A stretch of DNA of 64,000 bases. Source: an uncultured Alphaproteobacteria bacterium. Lineage in GTDB: Bacteria; Pseudomonadota; Alphaproteobacteria; HIMB59; GCA-002718135. A program made the translations under genes and the position numbers. The notes beneath the pieces are model-generated. The model was not told where the DNA came from, did no database searches, and saw only the letters and a program-made list of their open reading frames with translations. Location of the stretch: NCBI GenBank assembly GCA_902525035.1, contig CABZFN010000002.1, positions 57,603 through 121,602 of the forward strand, in the 5' to 3' direction. Of this stretch, positions 4,205 to 14,200 are shown piece by piece; positions within the stretch are counted from its first letter, which is position 1; each line of letters starts with the position of its first letter.

Positions 4205-5340
4205 TATTTCTTAGTAGATAGAGGATTAAAAATTTCTGTTTTTTCATCTGATAATTTTTCAACATAAAGTGACTGACTTGGAAAAGCAAAACCAGCTTTA
4301 TTATTTTCAACTATTTCTATTATCTTCACAGCAAGGTTTTCTTTTATTTTTAAATATTCTGCCCAATCATTTGTAACAGTAAATGTTTGTACTAACATAT
4401 CAATTGAGCTATCAGAAAAACTATCTATTCGAACATAAAAGCTAGCATTTTGATTTTTTGCAAAGTTATCATCTTTCTCAATTAAAATGTTAATCTCGTC
4501 TCTGATATTTTTTAATTGATCAATACTAGTTTTATATTCTAATCCAATTAGCCATCTTATACGTCTATGATGTCTTCTTGTGTAATTAGTTACAGACTGC
4601 TCTGCAAATTTATAATTTGGAACCATTACTGGAGTTGAATCAAATCTTCTTACAAGTGTTGATCTAAATCCAATTTGTTCAACAACTCCCTCTACTTCAC
4701 CTGAAACTAATATAACATCACCAACAGTAAACCTCTTTTCCATTAGTATCATGATACCACTAATTAAATTTTTAAATAAATCTTGAGCGCCCAGTGCAAC
4801 TGCTACACCAAATAAACCTAATCCTGCAATTACAGGCCCCACTCTTATTCCCCACAATTCTAAAATTGCTACAGCTCCGAGAACAATAACAAGAATTTTT
4901 AAACCTTTCAGAGTCCAATCAACTAACGGTTTCGAAATTTTTGACTCAAAGTTTTTTATTACAAATGAAAACGGTATAATTAATTGATGCAGTAACCAGA
5001 ATATAAAAATTGTAATTAATGATCTGTTTAGTAAATCTAAAAAATCTTGATTATTATCAGAAACATCCAAGTACGAAGAAGCTATAAAGAAACCTAAAAC
5101 AACAGGAAGAAATTTTAATGGTCCATCAAGTACTTCAATAACAGCATCATCAATTTGATTGGAAGTTTTTGAAACAATTCTTGATAATCGATTAAGAATA
5201 AATCTAGCTATAAGCCTTCTGAGTAAATAAAAAAGTAGGAAAATTAGAAGGCTTACTATGATATCTGTAGCATTTATGCCAAAAACACCGTTATTCCAAA
5301 CATCTAAAAAAAGGTCTGCAAAGCTATTGAATGTTTCCAT
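4204..5340 (-). CDS. Small-conductance mechanosensitive channel (MscS family)
   Basis: AGLGLFGVAVALGAQDLFKNLISG, FTVGD, EGVVEQIGFRST. Confidence 0.92.
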   Translation of the reverse strand: METFNSFADLFLDVWNNGVFGINATDIIVSLLIFLLFYLLRRLIARFILNRLSRIVSKTSNQIDDAVIEVLDGPLKFLPVVLGFFIASSYLDVSDNNQDFLDLLNRSLITIFIFWLLHQLIIPFSFVIKNFESKISKPLVDWTLKGLKILVIVLGAVAILELWGIRVGPVIAGLGLFGVAVALGAQDLFKNLISGIMILMEKRFTVGDVILVSGEVEGVVEQIGFRSTLVRRFDSTPVMVPNYKFAEQSVTNYTRRHHRRIRWLIGLEYKTSIDQLKNIRDEINILIEKDDNFAKNQNASFYVRIDSFSDSSIDMLVQTFTVTNDWAEYLKIKENLAVKIIEIVENNKAGFAFPSQSLYVEKLSDEKTEIFNPLSTKK

Positions 5341-5929: not shown

Positions 5930-5954
5930 CTTCTTATTATTATTTTTTCAAAGG

Positions 5955-7640
<1,686 letters not shown>

Positions 7641-10212: not shown

Positions 10213-10289
10213 TGGCGCGCCTGAGAAGAGTCGAACTCCTAACCTTATGATCCGTAGTCATACGCTCTATCCAATTGAGCTACAGGCGC
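10213..10289 (-). tRNA. tRNA-Arg(ACG)
   Basis: Minus strand reads GCGCCTGTAGCTCAATTGGATAGAGCG-TATGA-CTACGGA-TCATA-AGGTTAGGAGTTCGACTCTTCTCAGGCGCGCCA; CCA end encoded. Confidence 0.97.
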
Positions 10290-10340: not shown

Positions 10341-10892
10341 ATGAAACTTATACTTGCATTACTACTATTTACTTCTTTTTCAAAAATTAGTTATTCTAAT
10401 ATAGGTAAAGTGACTGGCCTTGAGATACCAAGATATGTATCTTTAAAATCTAATGACTCAAATATACGTGTAGGTCCAAGCAAAAATTATCCTATTGTAA
10501 TAAAGTATATTAACAAACATTTCCCATTGAAAATAATTGAAGAATATGAAGAGTGGAGAAAAATTGAAGATCACATGAATAATATCGGATGGATTCATAG
10601 AAGTTTAATAACTGGTGATAGAAGTGGGATTATTATATCTAATGATAATGAAAATATTGGTATTTTAAATACAGTTGGTGGAAAAATTATTGGAAAAATA
10701 GGTATAGGAAATATTGTTTCATTAAATAAGTGTAAGATTGATTGGTGTTTTATTTCGACTGATAGTTATAAAGGGTGGATTAGCAAGAATAATATATGGG
10801 GTGTTGAAAAAAAAGAGATATTTAAAATAAGTTTTTATCAGAATGTTGAAGATTTTTATTGGTGGAGTATTAATACTATTGATAGTTTATGA
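10341..10892 (+). CDS. Bacterial SH3-domain protein (two SH3-like domains, signal peptide)
   Basis: TGL.IPRYVSLK...NIRVGPS..YPI, EWRKI.D....GWIH.SL, GWI....IWGV. Confidence 0.85.
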   Translation: MKLILALLLFTSFSKISYSNIGKVTGLEIPRYVSLKSNDSNIRVGPSKNYPIVIKYINKHFPLKIIEEYEEWRKIEDHMNNIGWIHRSLITGDRSGIIISNDNENIGILNTVGGKIIGKIGIGNIVSLNKCKIDWCFISTDSYKGWISKNNIWGVEKKEIFKISFYQNVEDFYWWSINTIDSL

Positions 10893-10908
10893 GAAAGATT
10901 TTAAAATC

Positions 10909-10953
10909 TGGTTGGGGGGTAGGATTCCAACCAATGAATGCCAACTCCAAAAA
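10909..10953 (-). repeat. Degenerate copy of the tRNA-Gln 3' half (att-like site 1)
   Basis: tggttggggggtaggattccaaccaatgaatgccaactccaaaaa matches 13274-13319 at 40/46 positions (one gap); similarity ends at the anticodon loop. Confidence 0.9.
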
Positions 10954-11065
10954 TAGATAAATTAATTATTGATATTAAAAAAGTTAATAAAATTTTGTAA
11001 ATTCTTTCTGTTATCTGAAAAATTACTTTTTGAATCCAGAGGATTTGCAGCGAAAATCAAGAGTG

Positions 11066-11091
11066 ATTTAGCCCTTAAAGAAGGGCTAAAT
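11066..11091 (-). terminator. Hairpin terminator of the fasciclin gene
   Basis: ATTTAGCCCTT-aaag-AAGGGCTAAAT perfect 11-bp stem, 3 nt after the stop codon. Confidence 0.75.
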
Positions 11092-11094
11092 TAA

Positions 11095-11577
11095 TTATTG
11101 TGGTAATACTACTTTATTAATGACATGAATAACACCATTTGTAGTTTCTATATCTGCTGTAATGACTTCTGCATCATTTACAAAAACTTTACCGTTTTCT
11201 GCTTTTACAATTAACTTCTGACCATTAACTGTCTCTGCTTCAATAGTTCCGGATATATCTCCTGACATTACTTTTCCAGAAATCACGTGGTATGTTAAAA
11301 TTCCAGCTAGAGTACTTTTATTTTCTGGTTTAAGAAGTTCATTCAAAGTTTCTTCGTCAATAAGAGCAAATGCATCATCTGTAGGTGCAAATACTGTAAT
11401 AGGACCCGTGCCTTTGAGTGTGTCAACTAAATCTGCTGCTTGTACTGCAGCAACCAATGTATTAAACGAGCCAGCTTTAATTGCAGTATCCACAATGTCA
11501 TGTTTGTGTCCGTCTGCTTTTAAAACATTAGCAAAGAATACGAATGGAATAACTAATGTAATGAATATTTTTTTCAT
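11095..11577 (-). CDS. Fasciclin (FAS1) domain protein, secreted
   Basis: [47 protein letters not shown]. Confidence 0.95.
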
Positions 11578-11760
11578 AATATTTCCTTTCTAATAATTTA
11601 AATTTAGTCTGAAAAAAATTAATAAAATGTGACAACCTGTACAAATAAAATTTTTAAAAAAATTTTTTAAATTTTTTTATAAAATTAATTTTTAATAAGT
11701 ATCAATAGTGCGGCGTATGTGTCGCAAAAACTTACAATTCATAGACGATGACGTAATTAT

Positions 11761-11806
11761 TGGTTAGGGGGGTATGATTCGAACCTACAAATGCCAACTC
11801 CAAAAA
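11761..11806 (-). repeat. Degenerate copy of the tRNA-Gln 3' half (att-like site 2)
   Basis: tggttaggggggtatgattcgaacctacaaatgccaactccaaaaa matches 13274-13319 at 40/46 positions without gaps. Confidence 0.92.
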
Positions 11807-11964
11807 GAGTTGAAATAACAATTAGATTTATAAATTGGCTAGATAACTTGTATTAATTTTTTATAGTTTTAAAAATGACTTTGTAAATGTAGTCTAAGTG
11901 TAGCCAAAATTTAATATTTTATTAATTTAAATTTTTTATATTCTTAAAAAAAAGGAGTTTATAA

Positions 11965-12882
11965 ATGACTAAAATTGCAATAGTAACAGGAGCATCTCGT
12001 GGATTTGGTCGAGGAATAGCTCATGTACTTGCTACTGAAGGTAATTTCAAGGTATTCGCAACTGCAAGAAATAAATCTGCTCTTGATGATCTAAAAGATG
12101 AAGTTGATTCTTTTAAAGGAGATGGAGAATTATTTCCTTATGTTTTAGATCAAAATAATGATGAAGATGTCAAAAAATTTTCGGAAGAAATAATTTCAAA
12201 AGAAGAAAAAATAGATTTACTTGTCAATAGTGCTTATCAAGGACTAGTAGCAATGACACCTCATTTTGGTAAACCATTTTGGGAGAGACCTATCTCTGTG
12301 TATGATGGACATATGAATGTAGGTGTTAGAAGCTCATATGTAATGAGTAAGCTAATAGTTCCATCAATGATAAAAAATAATAATGGGCTGATATTACAAA
12401 TTTCTAGTTATGGAGGTTTTTTTTATCTTTTTGATGTTGGGTATGGAGTTGCACATGCTGCAATGGATCGTCTGAGTTGTGATATGGCTATTGAGTTAAA
12501 AGAGCATAATGTAAGAGCAATAACTTTACATCCTGCAGGTGGTCAAACAGAAATTACGGCATTTCCTAATGGAGAAAGTCCAAAATTTGTTGGTAGAGCT
12601 GTATATGCTTTAATTGAAAAGGCTGATGATTCTTTTTTATCTAAATCAAATGGCAAAACATTATTTACAATTGATTTGGCAAAAAAATTTGATTTTAAAG
12701 AAGATTATGATCATGATGGATCTATCAATGAAACGCGTTACGAAAGTTCAAAACCTATTAAAGAAATGATGTTAAAGGCATTACCTCAATATGATGGTGA
12801 ATCACTATTACCATCATTTAAGGAAACTAATAATTCTGGTTTTGCAGATTTATTTCCAGGAGCAAAAAATAAAAAATTATAA
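11965..12882 (+). CDS. Short-chain dehydrogenase/reductase (DHRS1-like)
   Basis: TGASRGFGRG, IDLLVNSAY, KPFWE.P, ISS.GG..Y.F.V.YGV; RBS AGGAG. Confidence 0.88.
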   Translation: MTKIAIVTGASRGFGRGIAHVLATEGNFKVFATARNKSALDDLKDEVDSFKGDGELFPYVLDQNNDEDVKKFSEEIISKEEKIDLLVNSAYQGLVAMTPHFGKPFWERPISVYDGHMNVGVRSSYVMSKLIVPSMIKNNNGLILQISSYGGFFYLFDVGYGVAHAAMDRLSCDMAIELKEHNVRAITLHPAGGQTEITAFPNGESPKFVGRAVYALIEKADDSFLSKSNGKTLFTIDLAKKFDFKEDYDHDGSINETRYESSKPIKEMMLKALPQYDGESLLPSFKETNNSGFADLFPGAKNKKL

Positions 12883-12894
12883 AGGAGTTATAAA

Positions 12895-13206
12895 ATGTCA
12901 TTAATGGTTTGGATTAAAGTTCATATTAGAGAAGGAAAAATGGATGAATATATGAATTTACATAACTCTCCAAACGGAAGAGCCTACACCTTGTCTCAAG
13001 AAGGATGTAATAGTATTATTAGATCAATAGATAGAGAAAATAAAAATGTGTTACTTTTAACAGAGGAATGGGACTCCATGGGTGATTGGGATAAATATAT
13101 AGCTAAAAGAGAAAGTGGTAAAGAAGACGACAATTTTTTAAAAAAGATAGCAAATCTTCTTACCAATAAAGGTCATGAAATCACGTTTTCAGAAATAACT
13201 AATTAA
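12895..13206 (+). CDS. Antibiotic biosynthesis monooxygenase (ABM)/dimeric alpha-beta barrel protein
   Basis: ~100 aa; ..EG..DEY, QEGC, LLTEEWDS pattern; RBS AAGGAG. Confidence 0.7.
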   Translation: MSLMVWIKVHIREGKMDEYMNLHNSPNGRAYTLSQEGCNSIIRSIDRENKNVLLLTEEWDSMGDWDKYIAKRESGKEDDNFLKKIANLLTNKGHEITFSEITN

Positions 13207-13273
13207 ATAAATTAGTCTCAGTTTAGCCTAAGCGTTGCCACATCAATAGATTCAGAAGATACATGCAATTTTT

Positions 13274-13348
13274 TGGCTGGGGCGGTAGGATTCGAACCTA
13301 CGAATGCCGACTCCAAAAACCGGTGCCTTACCGCTTGGCGACGCCCCA
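13274..13348 (-). tRNA. tRNA-Gln(TTG)
   Basis: Minus strand reads TGGGGCGTCGCCAAGCGGTAAGGCA-CCGGT-TTTTGGA-GTCGG-CATTCGTAGGTTCGAATCCTACCGCCCCAGCCA. Confidence 0.97.
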
Positions 13349-13510: not shown

Positions 13511-14200
13511 ATGCGAGAATTGTTTACAGTAGTTTCATTCTTATCAGTTTTTTTAACCATTAATCAAGTCAATGCGAATACAGAAAAGTTGTACGAGAGA
13601 CTTGTAAATGATTGGTCAACTATTTTTCCTGATGGAAATAGAAATGCTGCTGGGCCTAGATTTTTTAAATATATTTTAGATCAAAACTTTGAATATGAAG
13701 AATTTTTGCAATTTAATAAATTATATTGTGCTGTTTCAGGCTCTCTAATTCCTCCTGATGCTCAACCAGATGAAATCTTTCTTACTAATTTAGATAATGA
13801 TGAAAAAATTTGTGGTCAATATTATAAATGTTGTTGGCCTTGTTTATGTGATGTAATGAAATATTCAGAAACAAAAAAAATAAACATTAATTTTAAAGAT
13901 CAATCAAAAGATATTTATGCAATTGTTATAGATAATCCTTGTGATAAAAATGATTTTCCAGAACTTGTTAATCGAGATTATTTTTGTGCAGGTAATGAGT
14001 TAAATAAAGAATATACTTACTCAGTAGATAATAAACTTGTTATTGGCTTATTGCATAATGCAAAAAAATGTGATGCTTACGATATAGATTACATAAAAAA
14101 TGACCAAATAACCGGACCCATGTGTGAAGCTAGAAATAGTATGCCTCTCGAGGATCTGAATTTTGGAATGGGCGACATTTTTATTAGATTGGCAAATTGA
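13511..14200 (+). CDS. Secreted Cys-rich hypothetical protein
   Basis: Signal peptide (VNA|N); 10 Cys including CGQYYKCCWPCLCD. Confidence 0.85.
   Translation: MRELFTVVSFLSVFLTINQVNANTEKLYERLVNDWSTIFPDGNRNAAGPRFFKYILDQNFEYEEFLQFNKLYCAVSGSLIPPDAQPDEIFLTNLDNDEKICGQYYKCCWPCLCDVMKYSETKKININFKDQSKDIYAIVIDNPCDKNDFPELVNRDYFCAGNELNKEYTYSVDNKLVIGLLHNAKKCDAYDIDYIKNDQITGPMCEARNSMPLEDLNFGMGDIFIRLAN

Follow-up and report, generated by a model that had tools for sequence, protein, structure and literature searches.

Integrase-less gene units at the tRNA-Gln gene of a small-genome marine alphaproteobacterial genus as probable derivatives of tycheposon-like elements

By comparing a 64,000-nucleotide stretch of DNA from an uncultured alphaproteobacterium (hereafter the window; GTDB lineage HIMB59, GCA-002718135; assembly GCA_902525035.1, contig CABZFN010000002.1, positions 57,603 to 121,602) with its relatives, we found that small gene units bounded by tRNA fragments vary in number, cargo and order at tRNA-Gln(ttg), and that a few relatives carry integrase-bearing elements at the same tRNA. 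The reading that we favor, and consider probable, is that deletion turned tycheposon-like elements into these non-autonomous units, which compare with CIMEs and are moved by the integrases of rare helper elements. Movement of the integrase-less units themselves and the identity of the helper responsible are inferences.

The intact tRNA-Gln(ttg) gene of the window (13274-13348, minus strand; ARAGORN), which serves as attB, is flanked on its 5′ side by a conserved 229-aa gene without Pfam family (13511-14200, plus strand) and on the other, B′, side by a conserved chromosomal SH3-domain gene (10341-10892, plus strand; Pfam SH3_4, 1.9e-19). Between the SH3 gene and the tRNA stand two displaced copies of the tRNA 3′ half, both on the minus strand: no. 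1, the outermost att core (45 nt, 10909-10953), and no. 2, the internal att core that parts the two units (46 nt, 11761-11806). Each is identical to the resident tRNA (13274-13319) at 40 of 46 positions, the former differing by five substitutions and a 1-nt deletion and the latter at six positions; both stop in the anticodon loop (tRNA positions 30/31-75), and T at position 4 and A at position 36 are common to both. The genome has a GC content of 28.8%, and most of the substitutions run from G/C to A/T (5/6 in copy 2 and 3/5 in copy 1), so that these two common substitutions may reflect parallel decay instead of common descent. All three copies were recovered by repeat search and blastn-short, and the genome holds no others; at up to 3 mismatches, the core 31-mer has two matches in the window and none in any of 100 shuffles. 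The SH3 side of half no. 1 matches the flank that adjoins the tRNA at empty sites of relatives, and the resident tRNA-Gln is 100% identical across most genomes of the genus. In a scheme attributed to Williams in 2002, the anticodon-loop class of tRNA-targeting integrase elements reportedly shows attP/attB identity that extends from the anticodon loop through the 3′ end of the tRNA and has its integrase gene beside att; the 45-46-nt repeats, which begin at tRNA position 30/31, place the site in that class.

Measured start to start, the two units span 853 nt (unit 0, fasciclin) and 1513 nt (unit 1, SDR and ABM). Unit 0 consists of a decayed P arm followed by a terminator-like hairpin (10954-11094, minus strand), a gene for a secreted fasciclin-domain protein of 160 aa (11095-11577, minus strand; PF02469, 2.5e-39) and a P′ arm (11578-11760, minus strand). 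Unit 1 comprises a P arm homologous to that of ABM-only units in G069, G090, G113 and G122 (11807-11964, minus strand), genes for a 305-aa short-chain dehydrogenase/reductase (SDR; 11965-12882, plus strand; PF00106, 1.5e-28) and a 103-aa ABM-family protein (12895-13206, plus strand; PF03992, 1.7e-6), and a decayed P′ arm recognized by comparison with G068 and G069 (13207-13273, minus strand). No open reading frame of either unit matches an integrase family in Pfam, tblastn with a relative's tRNA-Gln integrase detects no remnant in the array even at E<=10, and the Pfam search finds no replication module (primase, helicase or polymerase) in the two units. A sequence-only reading of this DNA had already described two degenerate tRNA-Gln 3′-half copies, each 40/46 identical, carrying the same two substitutions and ending in the anticodon loop, and units of about 0.85 and 1.5 kb of which neither holds an integrase or its remnant; all of this is borne out. 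The SDR gene is itself a variable part, which some ABM units have and other, otherwise identical ones lack: on both sides of it, unit 1 aligns with ABM-only units, and metagenome contigs from two studies join 11942 to 12888, bypassing it. With cores that have diverged (6/46 positions) and arms that have decayed, the two units of the window most likely represent old insertions that have lost their mobility.

Our comparison covered 105 genomes of the genus, one per species and all draft assemblies, of which 82 contain the tRNA-Gln 31-mer. The 3′ side of this tRNA is empty in 39 of the 82, the tRNA lying 18-75 nt past the SH3 gene, and occupied in 43, with 0-3 units per site (site status in G032 judged from coordinates). 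Thirty-two units with recognizable tRNA-copy bounds were delimited in 25 genomes; they measure 541-7565 nt (25 of them <2 kb), and their boundaries coincide with cores in every case. The repeats correspond to the 3′ part of tRNA-Gln and fall into two size classes, 45-49 or 64-71 nt, with perfect copies of 45, 46 and 70 nt in G027, G072, G090, G015, G091 and G080; no integrase was found for the class with 64-71-nt repeats. Cargo ranges over ABM, SDR plus ABM, fasciclin, FkbM methyltransferases, sulfotransferases, a GST-like protein, helicase/nuclease proteins and unknowns, and G002 and G022 have a homologous 247/249-aa cargo gene in opposite orientation. At the occupied sites of G017, G079, G099 and G101, neither a tRNA fragment nor an arm was seen. 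The empty site, the variable number, cargo and order of units, and the breakpoints at the repeats that the sequence-only reading had expected of relatives are thus what the genus displays.

Some units are far more alike than their surroundings. G021 and G015 share a sulfotransferase unit with 99.6% identity over 1556 nt, against 73% and 86% in their flanks, and ABM units of G090, G108, G113 and G122 are 96.9-98.7% identical, with flanks at 74-92%; by this measure integrase-less units appear to have spread between species. The assemblies being drafts, repeats of 45-75 nt could thread one population's unit into another's contig, which would inflate identity between species. The window's units are 88.9-92.3% identical to those of relatives and its right-hand flank 88-90%, so that vertical descent suffices for this genome. 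That the units are about as diverged as this flank would also be expected if cargo were swapped by homologous recombination through the conserved flanks of a variable islet (SH3 gene, tRNA and next gene), the repeats being old relics with no present role, and the available part of one report describes exchange of island content by recombination in streamlined marine bacteria, with Methylophilaceae replacement islands showing raised dS at their borders (PMC10872708). However, flank-mediated exchange predicts the opposite of high identity confined to the unit, and it leaves aside both the agreement of all 32 sets of boundaries with cores and the perfect repeats of six genomes; we consider this explanation highly improbable.

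Three genomes (G094, G064 and G100) carry a tyrosine-integrase element of 5.7-13.7 kb at tRNA-Gln. The G094 unit, bounded by the tRNA and a perfect 45-nt repeat, is 5653 nt long and encodes an integrase of 335 aa (PF00589, 1e-24; phrog_1, 3e-57), whose homologues at the same tRNA are 68% (G064) and 75% (G100) identical; in both G094 and G064, 68 nt separate the tRNA from the integrase start, and primase-like proteins of 692 and 694 aa are encoded by the G094 and G100 elements, respectively. The G100 element retains tRNA positions 1-42 instead of the 3′ half, which puts the crossover within tRNA positions 31-42. By their organization, these elements are tycheposon-like. The sequence-only reading had proposed looking for a tyrosine integrase next to the same att: G094 and G064 each have one adjoining the shared 45-mer, and the G100 homologue sits at the same tRNA, but none was found in the window's own genome (78% complete), where the sole PF00589 match lies on another contig and belongs to an unrelated recombinase found genus-wide. 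By tblastn and blastn, no small-unit cargo occurs inside the three integrase-bearing elements, so that no intermediate of an origin by deletion is observed at tRNA-Gln. Relatives of the G094 integrase were sought in a collection of viral contigs (11 pattern matches, 0 confirmed), which also contained no exact match to the degenerate 31-mer core and provided no free or packaged form for comparison.

The arms tie the small units to these elements. A pair of GC-containing 7-mers (up to 1 mismatch) is found in the P′ arm of 26 of the 32 units, against 11% of control windows, and 25 of these 26 pairs have an 11-nt spacing and lie 30-46 nt from the core; the P arm has a 7-mer pair in 21 of 32 units, against 20% of control windows. 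Both words of a pair vary together among units (GCGACAC, GGTCAC, GGTCTCAC, GGCTACAC, TTGGCAC), and in integrase-bearing elements the pairs adjoin the integrase start codon on its upstream side, a layout repeated before the integrase ATG at tRNA-Gln, tRNA-Leu, tRNA-Gly and a Ser-like tRNA fragment; these paired words are putative protein-binding arm sites. In the window, the P′ arm of unit 0 has the pair GCGACAC..GCCGCAC (tRNA strand) at 11708-11725, 36-53 nt from core no. 2, and CGCGGCACATACGCGGCAC, the same motif, stands directly upstream of the integrase ribosome-binding site and ATG in G094. The P arm of unit 1 has paired 7-mers at 11888-11894 and 11899-11905 (GGCTACA/GACTACA on the tRNA strand; 11-nt spacing, about 99 nt from the core), and its P′ arm keeps remains of paired GGCTACAC words at about 13220-13241. 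The P arm of unit 0 contains no 7-mer pair at up to 1 mismatch and bears a weak likeness to that of G094, in the words CGCTGCA and TGGATTCA only; an alignment of five sequences, one of them taken at wrong coordinates, with the P arms of G094 and G100 has a weak mean column identity of 44%, and we claim only the short common words.

Since the units keep both arms of the integrase-bearing element, and since in G027 homology to the integrase upstream region ends exactly at the start codon, they appear to be deletion derivatives of larger elements and not the cassettes of att and cargo alone that had been proposed from the window. Such a break is also the expected remainder if successive full elements had each lost integrase and replication genes in place at tRNA-Gln, the small units never having moved. 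In keeping with such scars, integrase-bearing versions with the same att site exist, att junctions have been lost by deletion within the arrays of G072 and G062, the window's cores and arms are decayed, truncated integrase genes occur at another site in G076, G004 and G123, and the available part of the tycheposon preprint describes degenerate remnants and scattered partial tRNAs in islands (10.1101/2020.12.28.424599). However, independent decay would not give identical end products, and integrase-less units are 97-99.6% identical between species with a drop at the att boundaries. Furthermore, tblastn detects an integrase remnant in none of the 31 integrase-less units, yet the paired words persist in most P′ and P arms, and an integrase lies on the tRNA 3′ side at only 2 of 43 occupied sites. 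We therefore regard scars that never moved as an unlikely account. The sequence-only reading had allowed that larger integrase-bearing versions might reveal the units as deletion scars only; such versions exist and the units look derived from them by deletion, but not as scars only.

The same cargo occurs at a second flexible island of the genus. Nine of the 105 genomes have fasciclin, each in one copy (G000 and G062 at tRNA-Gln, 7 at the second island), and 21 have ABM, with one match each (11 at tRNA-Gln, 10 at the second island). The island is bordered by a 355-aa tyrosine recombinase (G000:C6:1126-2193) present in 78 of 105 genomes at 72-97% identity, which in other genomes lies 2-30 kb from the island copies of ABM, SDR and fasciclin, and these copies come with a decayed tRNA-Gln fragment and the same arms. 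Such a distribution, with one copy per genome at either locus, could arise if the resident recombinase shuttled integrase-less units between the island and tRNA-Gln, as a platform integron-like in function. Yet this recombinase resembles the tRNA-Gln integrase over a 40-residue stretch only (30% identity), the repeat search found no att-like direct repeats bounding units in the island, and the island copies are more decayed than many at tRNA-Gln. Housekeeping functions are the usual task of conserved tyrosine recombinases like this one. We judge shuttling by the resident enzyme very unlikely. The island flanks match no Rfam RNA family.

Fasciclin precedes SDR-ABM in the window and follows it in G062. 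We dropped these opposite orders as proof of independent insertions once a fused SDR-ABM-fasciclin block was found at the second locus; a two-cassette circle or a rearrangement is equally possible. The same unit architecture without integrases occurs at tRNA-Ser(gga) and tRNA-Gly(gcc) of the window's genome. A broader proposal, which we hold tentatively and with some doubt, is that the units are distinct mini-elements, each an attP (core and two arms with integrase-specific word pairs phased at 11 bp) plus cargo, which would leave the chromosome as circles of one or more cassettes and re-insert at tRNA-Gln, tRNA-Ser and tRNA-Gly through rare helpers or possibly the resident recombinase. A few tRNAs would then act as integron-like capture platforms, and the permuted order between the window (fasciclin, core, SDR-ABM) and G062 or the second island (SDR-ABM, fasciclin) would reflect a two-cassette circle re-integrated via its other att.

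A search of reads for circular attP junctions had been proposed; none was established, and no circular or excised form was seen, in Logan contigs of marine and seawater runs (best share 0.34). One contig has a joint that goes back 1498 positions, from 13319 to 11822 (shorter side 40 letters); we rejected it as a circle, other strains with a perfect core beside this P arm explaining it. A joint that skips 2516 positions, from 10756 to 13273 (shorter side 22 letters), was too weak to count as an empty site, and low contig depth at the two att junctions was not counted as evidence.

Returning to derivation from tycheposon-like elements by deletion, the following model accommodates our data. The autonomous form in this marine, AT-rich, small-genome genus, for which the tRNA-Gln 3′ end would be the attachment site of a whole family of small integrative elements, would be a 5.7-13.7 kb element with an inward-facing tyrosine integrase next to the tRNA and a DNA-primase module. 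Its integrase would cross over in the anticodon loop and leave a displaced tRNA half of 45-46 nt. Deletion of the integrase and replication modules from a cargo-carrying element probably yields units such as those of the window, which have a core and, between a P and a P′ arm, one or two cargo genes; because both arms and the core are kept, we propose that these units remain substrates for an integrase made elsewhere, which could come from a helper element visiting the same tRNA. Such a unit could travel in cis, inside a composite from which the helper is later lost, or form a small circle and move in trans; passage in cis as the helper's passenger accounts for the data as well as the mobilization in trans proposed from the sequence alone. 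As insertions recur at the intact tRNA, older units would be pushed toward the SH3 gene, and an array would build up.

Among the closest known systems are tycheposons of Prochlorococcus and the genomic islands built from them, similar elements being stated for Alpha-, Gamma- and Deltaproteobacteria in the available part of the preprint (Hackl et al., bioRxiv 10.1101/2020.12.28.424599). As described there, tycheposons integrate into tRNA genes and leave partial tRNA repeats, as at the window's site; a tyrosine integrase faces inward from one end and a small primase/helicase module is present, as in the G094-type elements; and they form tandem elements parted by partial tRNAs, with decayed island remnants, in streamlined marine hosts. 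In contrast, the window's units have neither the inward-facing recombinase (present in G094, G064 and G100) nor a replication module (primase-like proteins in G094 and G100), and the dominant form here is a unit of one or two genes and 0.55-2 kb, with no hallmark gene but with both arms and apparent spread between species. In that portion of the preprint, elements are defined by their integrase, integrase-less island material is treated as flanking DNA dropped after imprecise excision, with no clear boundaries, and arm repeats or bounded integrase-less units are not described. Being integrase-less and bounded by att cores and (decayed) arms, the window's units resemble CIMEs. In the available part of a review of streptococcal ICEs, IMEs and CIMEs (PMC5704250), tandem arrays form by integration into a resident att, composites can excise and transfer together, and CIMEs arise from conjugative or mobilizable elements and rely on conjugation for transfer, whereas relaxase, coupling-protein and T4SS families are absent from the units and helper-like elements examined here (Pfam, PHROGs); moreover, our candidate helpers are integrase-plus-primase elements, and the units are far smaller and sit at several tRNAs.

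The arrays share with integrons small, mostly single-gene, integrase-less units at one site, variable in number, order and cargo. However, no IntI lies in or beside the window array (the G094 integrase scores 33 bits against TIGR02249, for a cut-off of 265), boundaries are tRNA halves with P and P′ arms instead of attI or attC, and cargo lies in both orientations (fasciclin minus, SDR and ABM plus) with no common promoter. We thus rejected integron identity, and the integron-style array of the sequence-only reading is an analogy only. Finally, additive islands next to tRNAs in SAR11 and Methylophilaceae have recurring tRNA 3′-end repeats that mark added cassettes (PMC10872708, PMC11796062); the main text of these reports, as far as available, gives the repeats only, with no arms, helpers, between-species identity or unit structure.

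At stake is how abundant streamlined marine bacteria with very few recognizable mobile elements exchange their flexible genes. The conserved 11-nt-spaced word pairs offer a signature by which such units could be sought in other sequences. If one-gene units with only the recombination sites of tycheposon-like elements do move between species, most "integrase-less" island content would be explained, one integrase, one tRNA and a 0.55-kb cassette would suffice for a direct test, and a few tRNA genes would be shared docking sites for a community gene pool.

The window carries its resident tRNA-Gln(ttg) at 13274-13348 (minus strand, ARAGORN). Sequence from the 3' part of this tRNA recurs in degenerate form at 10909-10953 and at 11761-11806, and each of these two copies agrees with 13274-13319 at 40 of 46 positions. 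The sequence-only reading had described both copies as ending in the anticodon loop and as sharing substitutions at positions 4 and 36, and sequence comparison bears this out, the shared bases being T4 and A36. The core 31-mer matched the window twice at ≤3 mismatches, compared with no match in 100 shuffles, and the whole genome (G000) holds these three core copies and no more. Most substitutions in the fragments replace G or C by A or T, and the genome has a GC content of 28.8%, so the shared T4 and A36 may reflect parallel decay. The two intervals encode a fasciclin gene on the minus strand (unit 0) and SDR (short-chain dehydrogenase/reductase) and ABM genes on the plus strand (unit 1). Both units had been described as integrase-less, and our searches agree: no ORF of the two intervals matched an integrase family, and tblastn with the integrase that uses the tRNA-Gln site in a relative returned no match in the window array.

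Our search set comprised 105 genomes of the genus, one per species and G000 included. The tRNA-Gln 31-mer was present in 82 of them, and the locus was fetched for 81 (G032 was assessed from coordinates). Relatives show an empty site and a varying number and cargo of units, as the tandem-array proposal anticipated. In 39 genomes the tRNA lies only 18-75 nt after the SH3 gene, the conserved chromosomal flank, so its 3' side is empty, whereas the interval is occupied in the other 43. Recognisable tRNA copies bound 32 units in 25 genomes (1-3 per genome; 541-7565 nt, 25 of the 32 below 2 kb), and the flank beyond the outermost fragment is always the one that follows the tRNA in empty sites. Neither tRNA fragment nor arm was found at the occupied sites of G017, G079, G099 and G101. 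Cargo includes ABM alone (units of ~0.55 kb in G069, G090, G113 and G122), SDR+ABM, fasciclin, FkbM-type methyltransferases, sulfotransferases, a GST-like protein, large helicase/nuclease proteins and proteins of unknown family. By length the repeats form two classes: 45-49 nt, ending in the anticodon loop, and 64-71 nt, spanning nearly the whole tRNA. The tRNA-Gln site is a genuine population-level hotspot that holds stacked, att-bounded, integrase-less cassettes. Units of the longer class (fetched loci L014, L017, L033, L034, L036, L040 and L032, from G021, G015, G080, G085, G091, G108 and G012) have their own arm words, TTGGCAC/TTGACAC, and no integrase of this class was found at tRNA-Gln among the 105 genomes. 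The 5' side of tRNA-Gln is separated from a conserved 229-aa gene by 10.5 kb of genes in G023 (L018) and by 6.3 kb in G029 (L019); no tRNA repeats were detected in these blocks.

A tyrosine integrase beside the same tRNA repeat, as the idea of mobilisation in trans had envisaged, does exist in G094, in a 5653-nt unit with a perfect 45-nt repeat on one side and the tRNA on the other. The integrase (335 aa; PF00589, 1e-24; phrog_1, 3e-57) starts 68 nt from the tRNA 3' end, and the unit further codes for a primase-like protein of 692 aa (DUF5906/VapE; PHROG DNA primase); the family searches of this unit yielded neither a capsid nor a terminase. Full-length homologues of the integrase, at 68-75% identity, occur in only two further genomes of the 105. 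In G064 the gene likewise starts 68 nt past tRNA-Gln. G100 carries a 13.7-kb element on the opposite side of the tRNA (L045:1985-15755), with the integrase and a 694-aa primase-like protein; the duplicated portion is the tRNA 5' part (positions 1-42), not the 3' half, the broken copy adjoining the integrase and the intact tRNA standing at the far end, abutting the SH3 gene. Positions 31-42 are common to both kinds of repeat, which suggests a crossover in or beside the anticodon loop. Integrases of ~30% identity adjoin tRNA-Leu(caa), tRNA-Gly(gcc) and a tmRNA in other genomes.

Several further observations concern these elements. The tRNA-Leu of G106 (L053) and a Ser-like tRNA fragment of G003 (L054) show a 5'-part arrangement similar to that of G100. 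The G100 element contains a ~30-60-nt motif three times (L045 ~4460-4495, ~5930-5975 and ~7155-7220), and the units of G006 and G019 have a matching stretch beside their P arms, 104-185 nt inside the unit; the motif may be a shared translation-start or regulatory sequence. Just past the SH3 gene of G082 (L064; G082:C6:~74250-75300) lies a tyrosine-recombinase ORF with ~23% identity to the G094 integrase; ARAGORN found no tRNA-Arg in this stretch, and the window has tRNA-Arg(acg) at 10213-10289. The tRNA-Arg neighbouring the SH3 gene may be an integration site as well.

In most of the small units both arms flanking the core survive. The first ~55 nt (tRNA sense) past each unit-bordering tRNA or att copy, the P' arm, are conserved across unrelated cargo and contain a pair of 7-8-mers at 11-nt spacing, 30-46 nt from the core (CGCGACAC-ATA-CGCGACAC; TGGTCAC..TGGTCAC; GGTCTCAC twice; GGCTACAC twice; TTGGCAC..TTGCCAC in the long-repeat class). 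The last ~110 nt ahead of each displaced fragment, the P arm, are also conserved; a similar pair stands there, 99-115 nt from the core in short-repeat units and 75-80 nt from it in long-repeat units. Counting GC-containing 7-mers with at most one mismatch, and taking unit interiors as control windows, we found a pair in 26/32 P' arms (controls 11%) and in 21/32 P arms (controls 20%); the spacing is 11 nt except in two cases. The integrase RBS and ATG of G094, G064 and G100 directly follow the P' pair, the same layout precedes integrase genes at other tRNAs with other words, and in G027 homology to the integrase upstream region continues through the RBS and ends at the position of the ATG. We read the small units as probable deletion derivatives retaining a complete set of recombination sites, and the word pairs as predicted binding sites of the integrase or a regulator. 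The window units retain parts of this architecture: in unit 0 the P' pair can be recognised at 11708-11725 (GCGACAC/GCCGCAC, two mismatches) and the P arm is badly decayed; in unit 1 the decayed arm is P', and the P arm has its pair at 11888-11905. The latter unit is an ABM-only unit with the SDR gene inserted between P arm and ABM. Metagenome contigs from two marine studies join 11942 to 12888, taking the P arm directly to the ABM start with the SDR gene missing; natural populations therefore include members with and members without the SDR gene.

Two other arrays in G000 have the arm architecture seen at tRNA-Gln (CGACACACATACGGCGCAC; TGTGACACCAGTGTGACAG). Downstream of tRNA-Ser(gga) (G000:C1:123900-126168) a perfect 72-nt partial copy lies at 2.1 kb, and downstream of tRNA-Gly(gcc) (G000:C8:44115-49292) two partial copies lie at 2.0 and 5.1 kb; the copies of this tRNA measure 49 nt (98%) and 41 nt (93%). 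No integrase was found in either array.

Comparison between species suggests that integrase-less units have spread, since identity falls at the att boundaries. In draft assemblies, where a unit could be threaded into the wrong backbone at 45-75-nt repeats, the sulfotransferase units of G021 and G015 are 99.6% identical over 1556 nt with flanks at 73% and 86%, the ABM units of G090, G108, G113 and G122 share 96.9-98.7% identity against 74-92% in their flanks, and the G069 and G072 units are 96.5% identical with flanks at 87% and 91%. Perfect 45-, 46- or 70-nt repeats bound several single units. No integrase remnant was found by tblastn in any of 31 integrase-less units, whereas truncated integrases of ~45-60 codons persist at another conserved site in G076, G004 and G123. 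These truncated genes (L047, G076:C10; L048, G004:C23; L049, G123:C2) comprise the first ~45-60 codons at 60-67% identity to the G094 integrase; GATCACAC word pairs precede them, as does a conserved GC-rich stretch resembling the 3' end of an RNA gene, and ARAGORN found no tRNA there. Mobility of the window units themselves is disfavoured, because their identity to relatives (88.9-92.3%) is about that of the right flank, no excision junction or circle was seen in metagenome contigs, and assembly threading is possible.

Unit order also varies. From the SH3 gene to the tRNA, the window reads fasciclin, core, SDR-ABM, and G062 reads SDR-ABM(pseudogene)-fasciclin, has lost the att inside this block and continues with two more units. 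ABM was matched in 21/105 genomes and fasciclin in 9/105, once per genome each, the match lying at tRNA-Gln in some genomes and in others in a second flexible island (G000:C6:~3620-30250; L095-L107) between a 129-aa gene and a region with a 355-aa tyrosine recombinase (G000:C6:1126-2193). This recombinase, present in 78/105 genomes, is unrelated to the tRNA-Gln integrase outside a 40-residue stretch. In other genomes the second island carries the same SDR, ABM and fasciclin genes as the window, with a strongly decayed tRNA-Gln fragment that has T4 and A36 and with the same arms; no att-like repeats were found bounding these copies. Relative to the fused block, the gene order in the window is circularly permuted, and an attP-like junction (P' arm, core, P arm) stands in its middle. 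Several histories could give this order: a two-cassette circle re-integrating via its other att site, independent insertions, or rearrangement between att copies.

Known systems offer close precedents. The tycheposon preprint describes tRNA-targeting elements of Prochlorococcus that carry a small replication module and an inward-facing integrase, tandem elements with partial tRNAs between them, degenerate remnants, island material proposed as drop-off after imprecise excision, and similar elements in other marine bacteria (bioRxiv 10.1101/2020.12.28.424599). A review describes CIMEs, or cis-mobilizable elements, as having lost integration and transfer genes, keeping attL and attR and moving in cis by accretion with a helper (PMC5704250), and a paper on Methylophilaceae reports an additive island in which 20-bp tRNA-Lys ends recur as markers (PMC10872708). 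The kind of system is therefore already known. In the portions of the literature searched, we found no bounded one- or two-gene unit with both arms kept, no element-covarying word pairs at 11-nt spacing, no two repeat-length classes plus a 5'-half variant at one tRNA, and no between-species identity of integrase-less units. The first interpretation is supported in part: it holds as far as a stacked, att-bounded, integrase-less array at a hotspot is concerned; its minimal cassettes of att and cargo give way to derivatives that keep both arms, mobilisation in trans is no more than a possible route, and the integron-style behaviour stands only as an analogy. The cassettes probably descend by deletion from tycheposon-like elements, and they resemble CIMEs.
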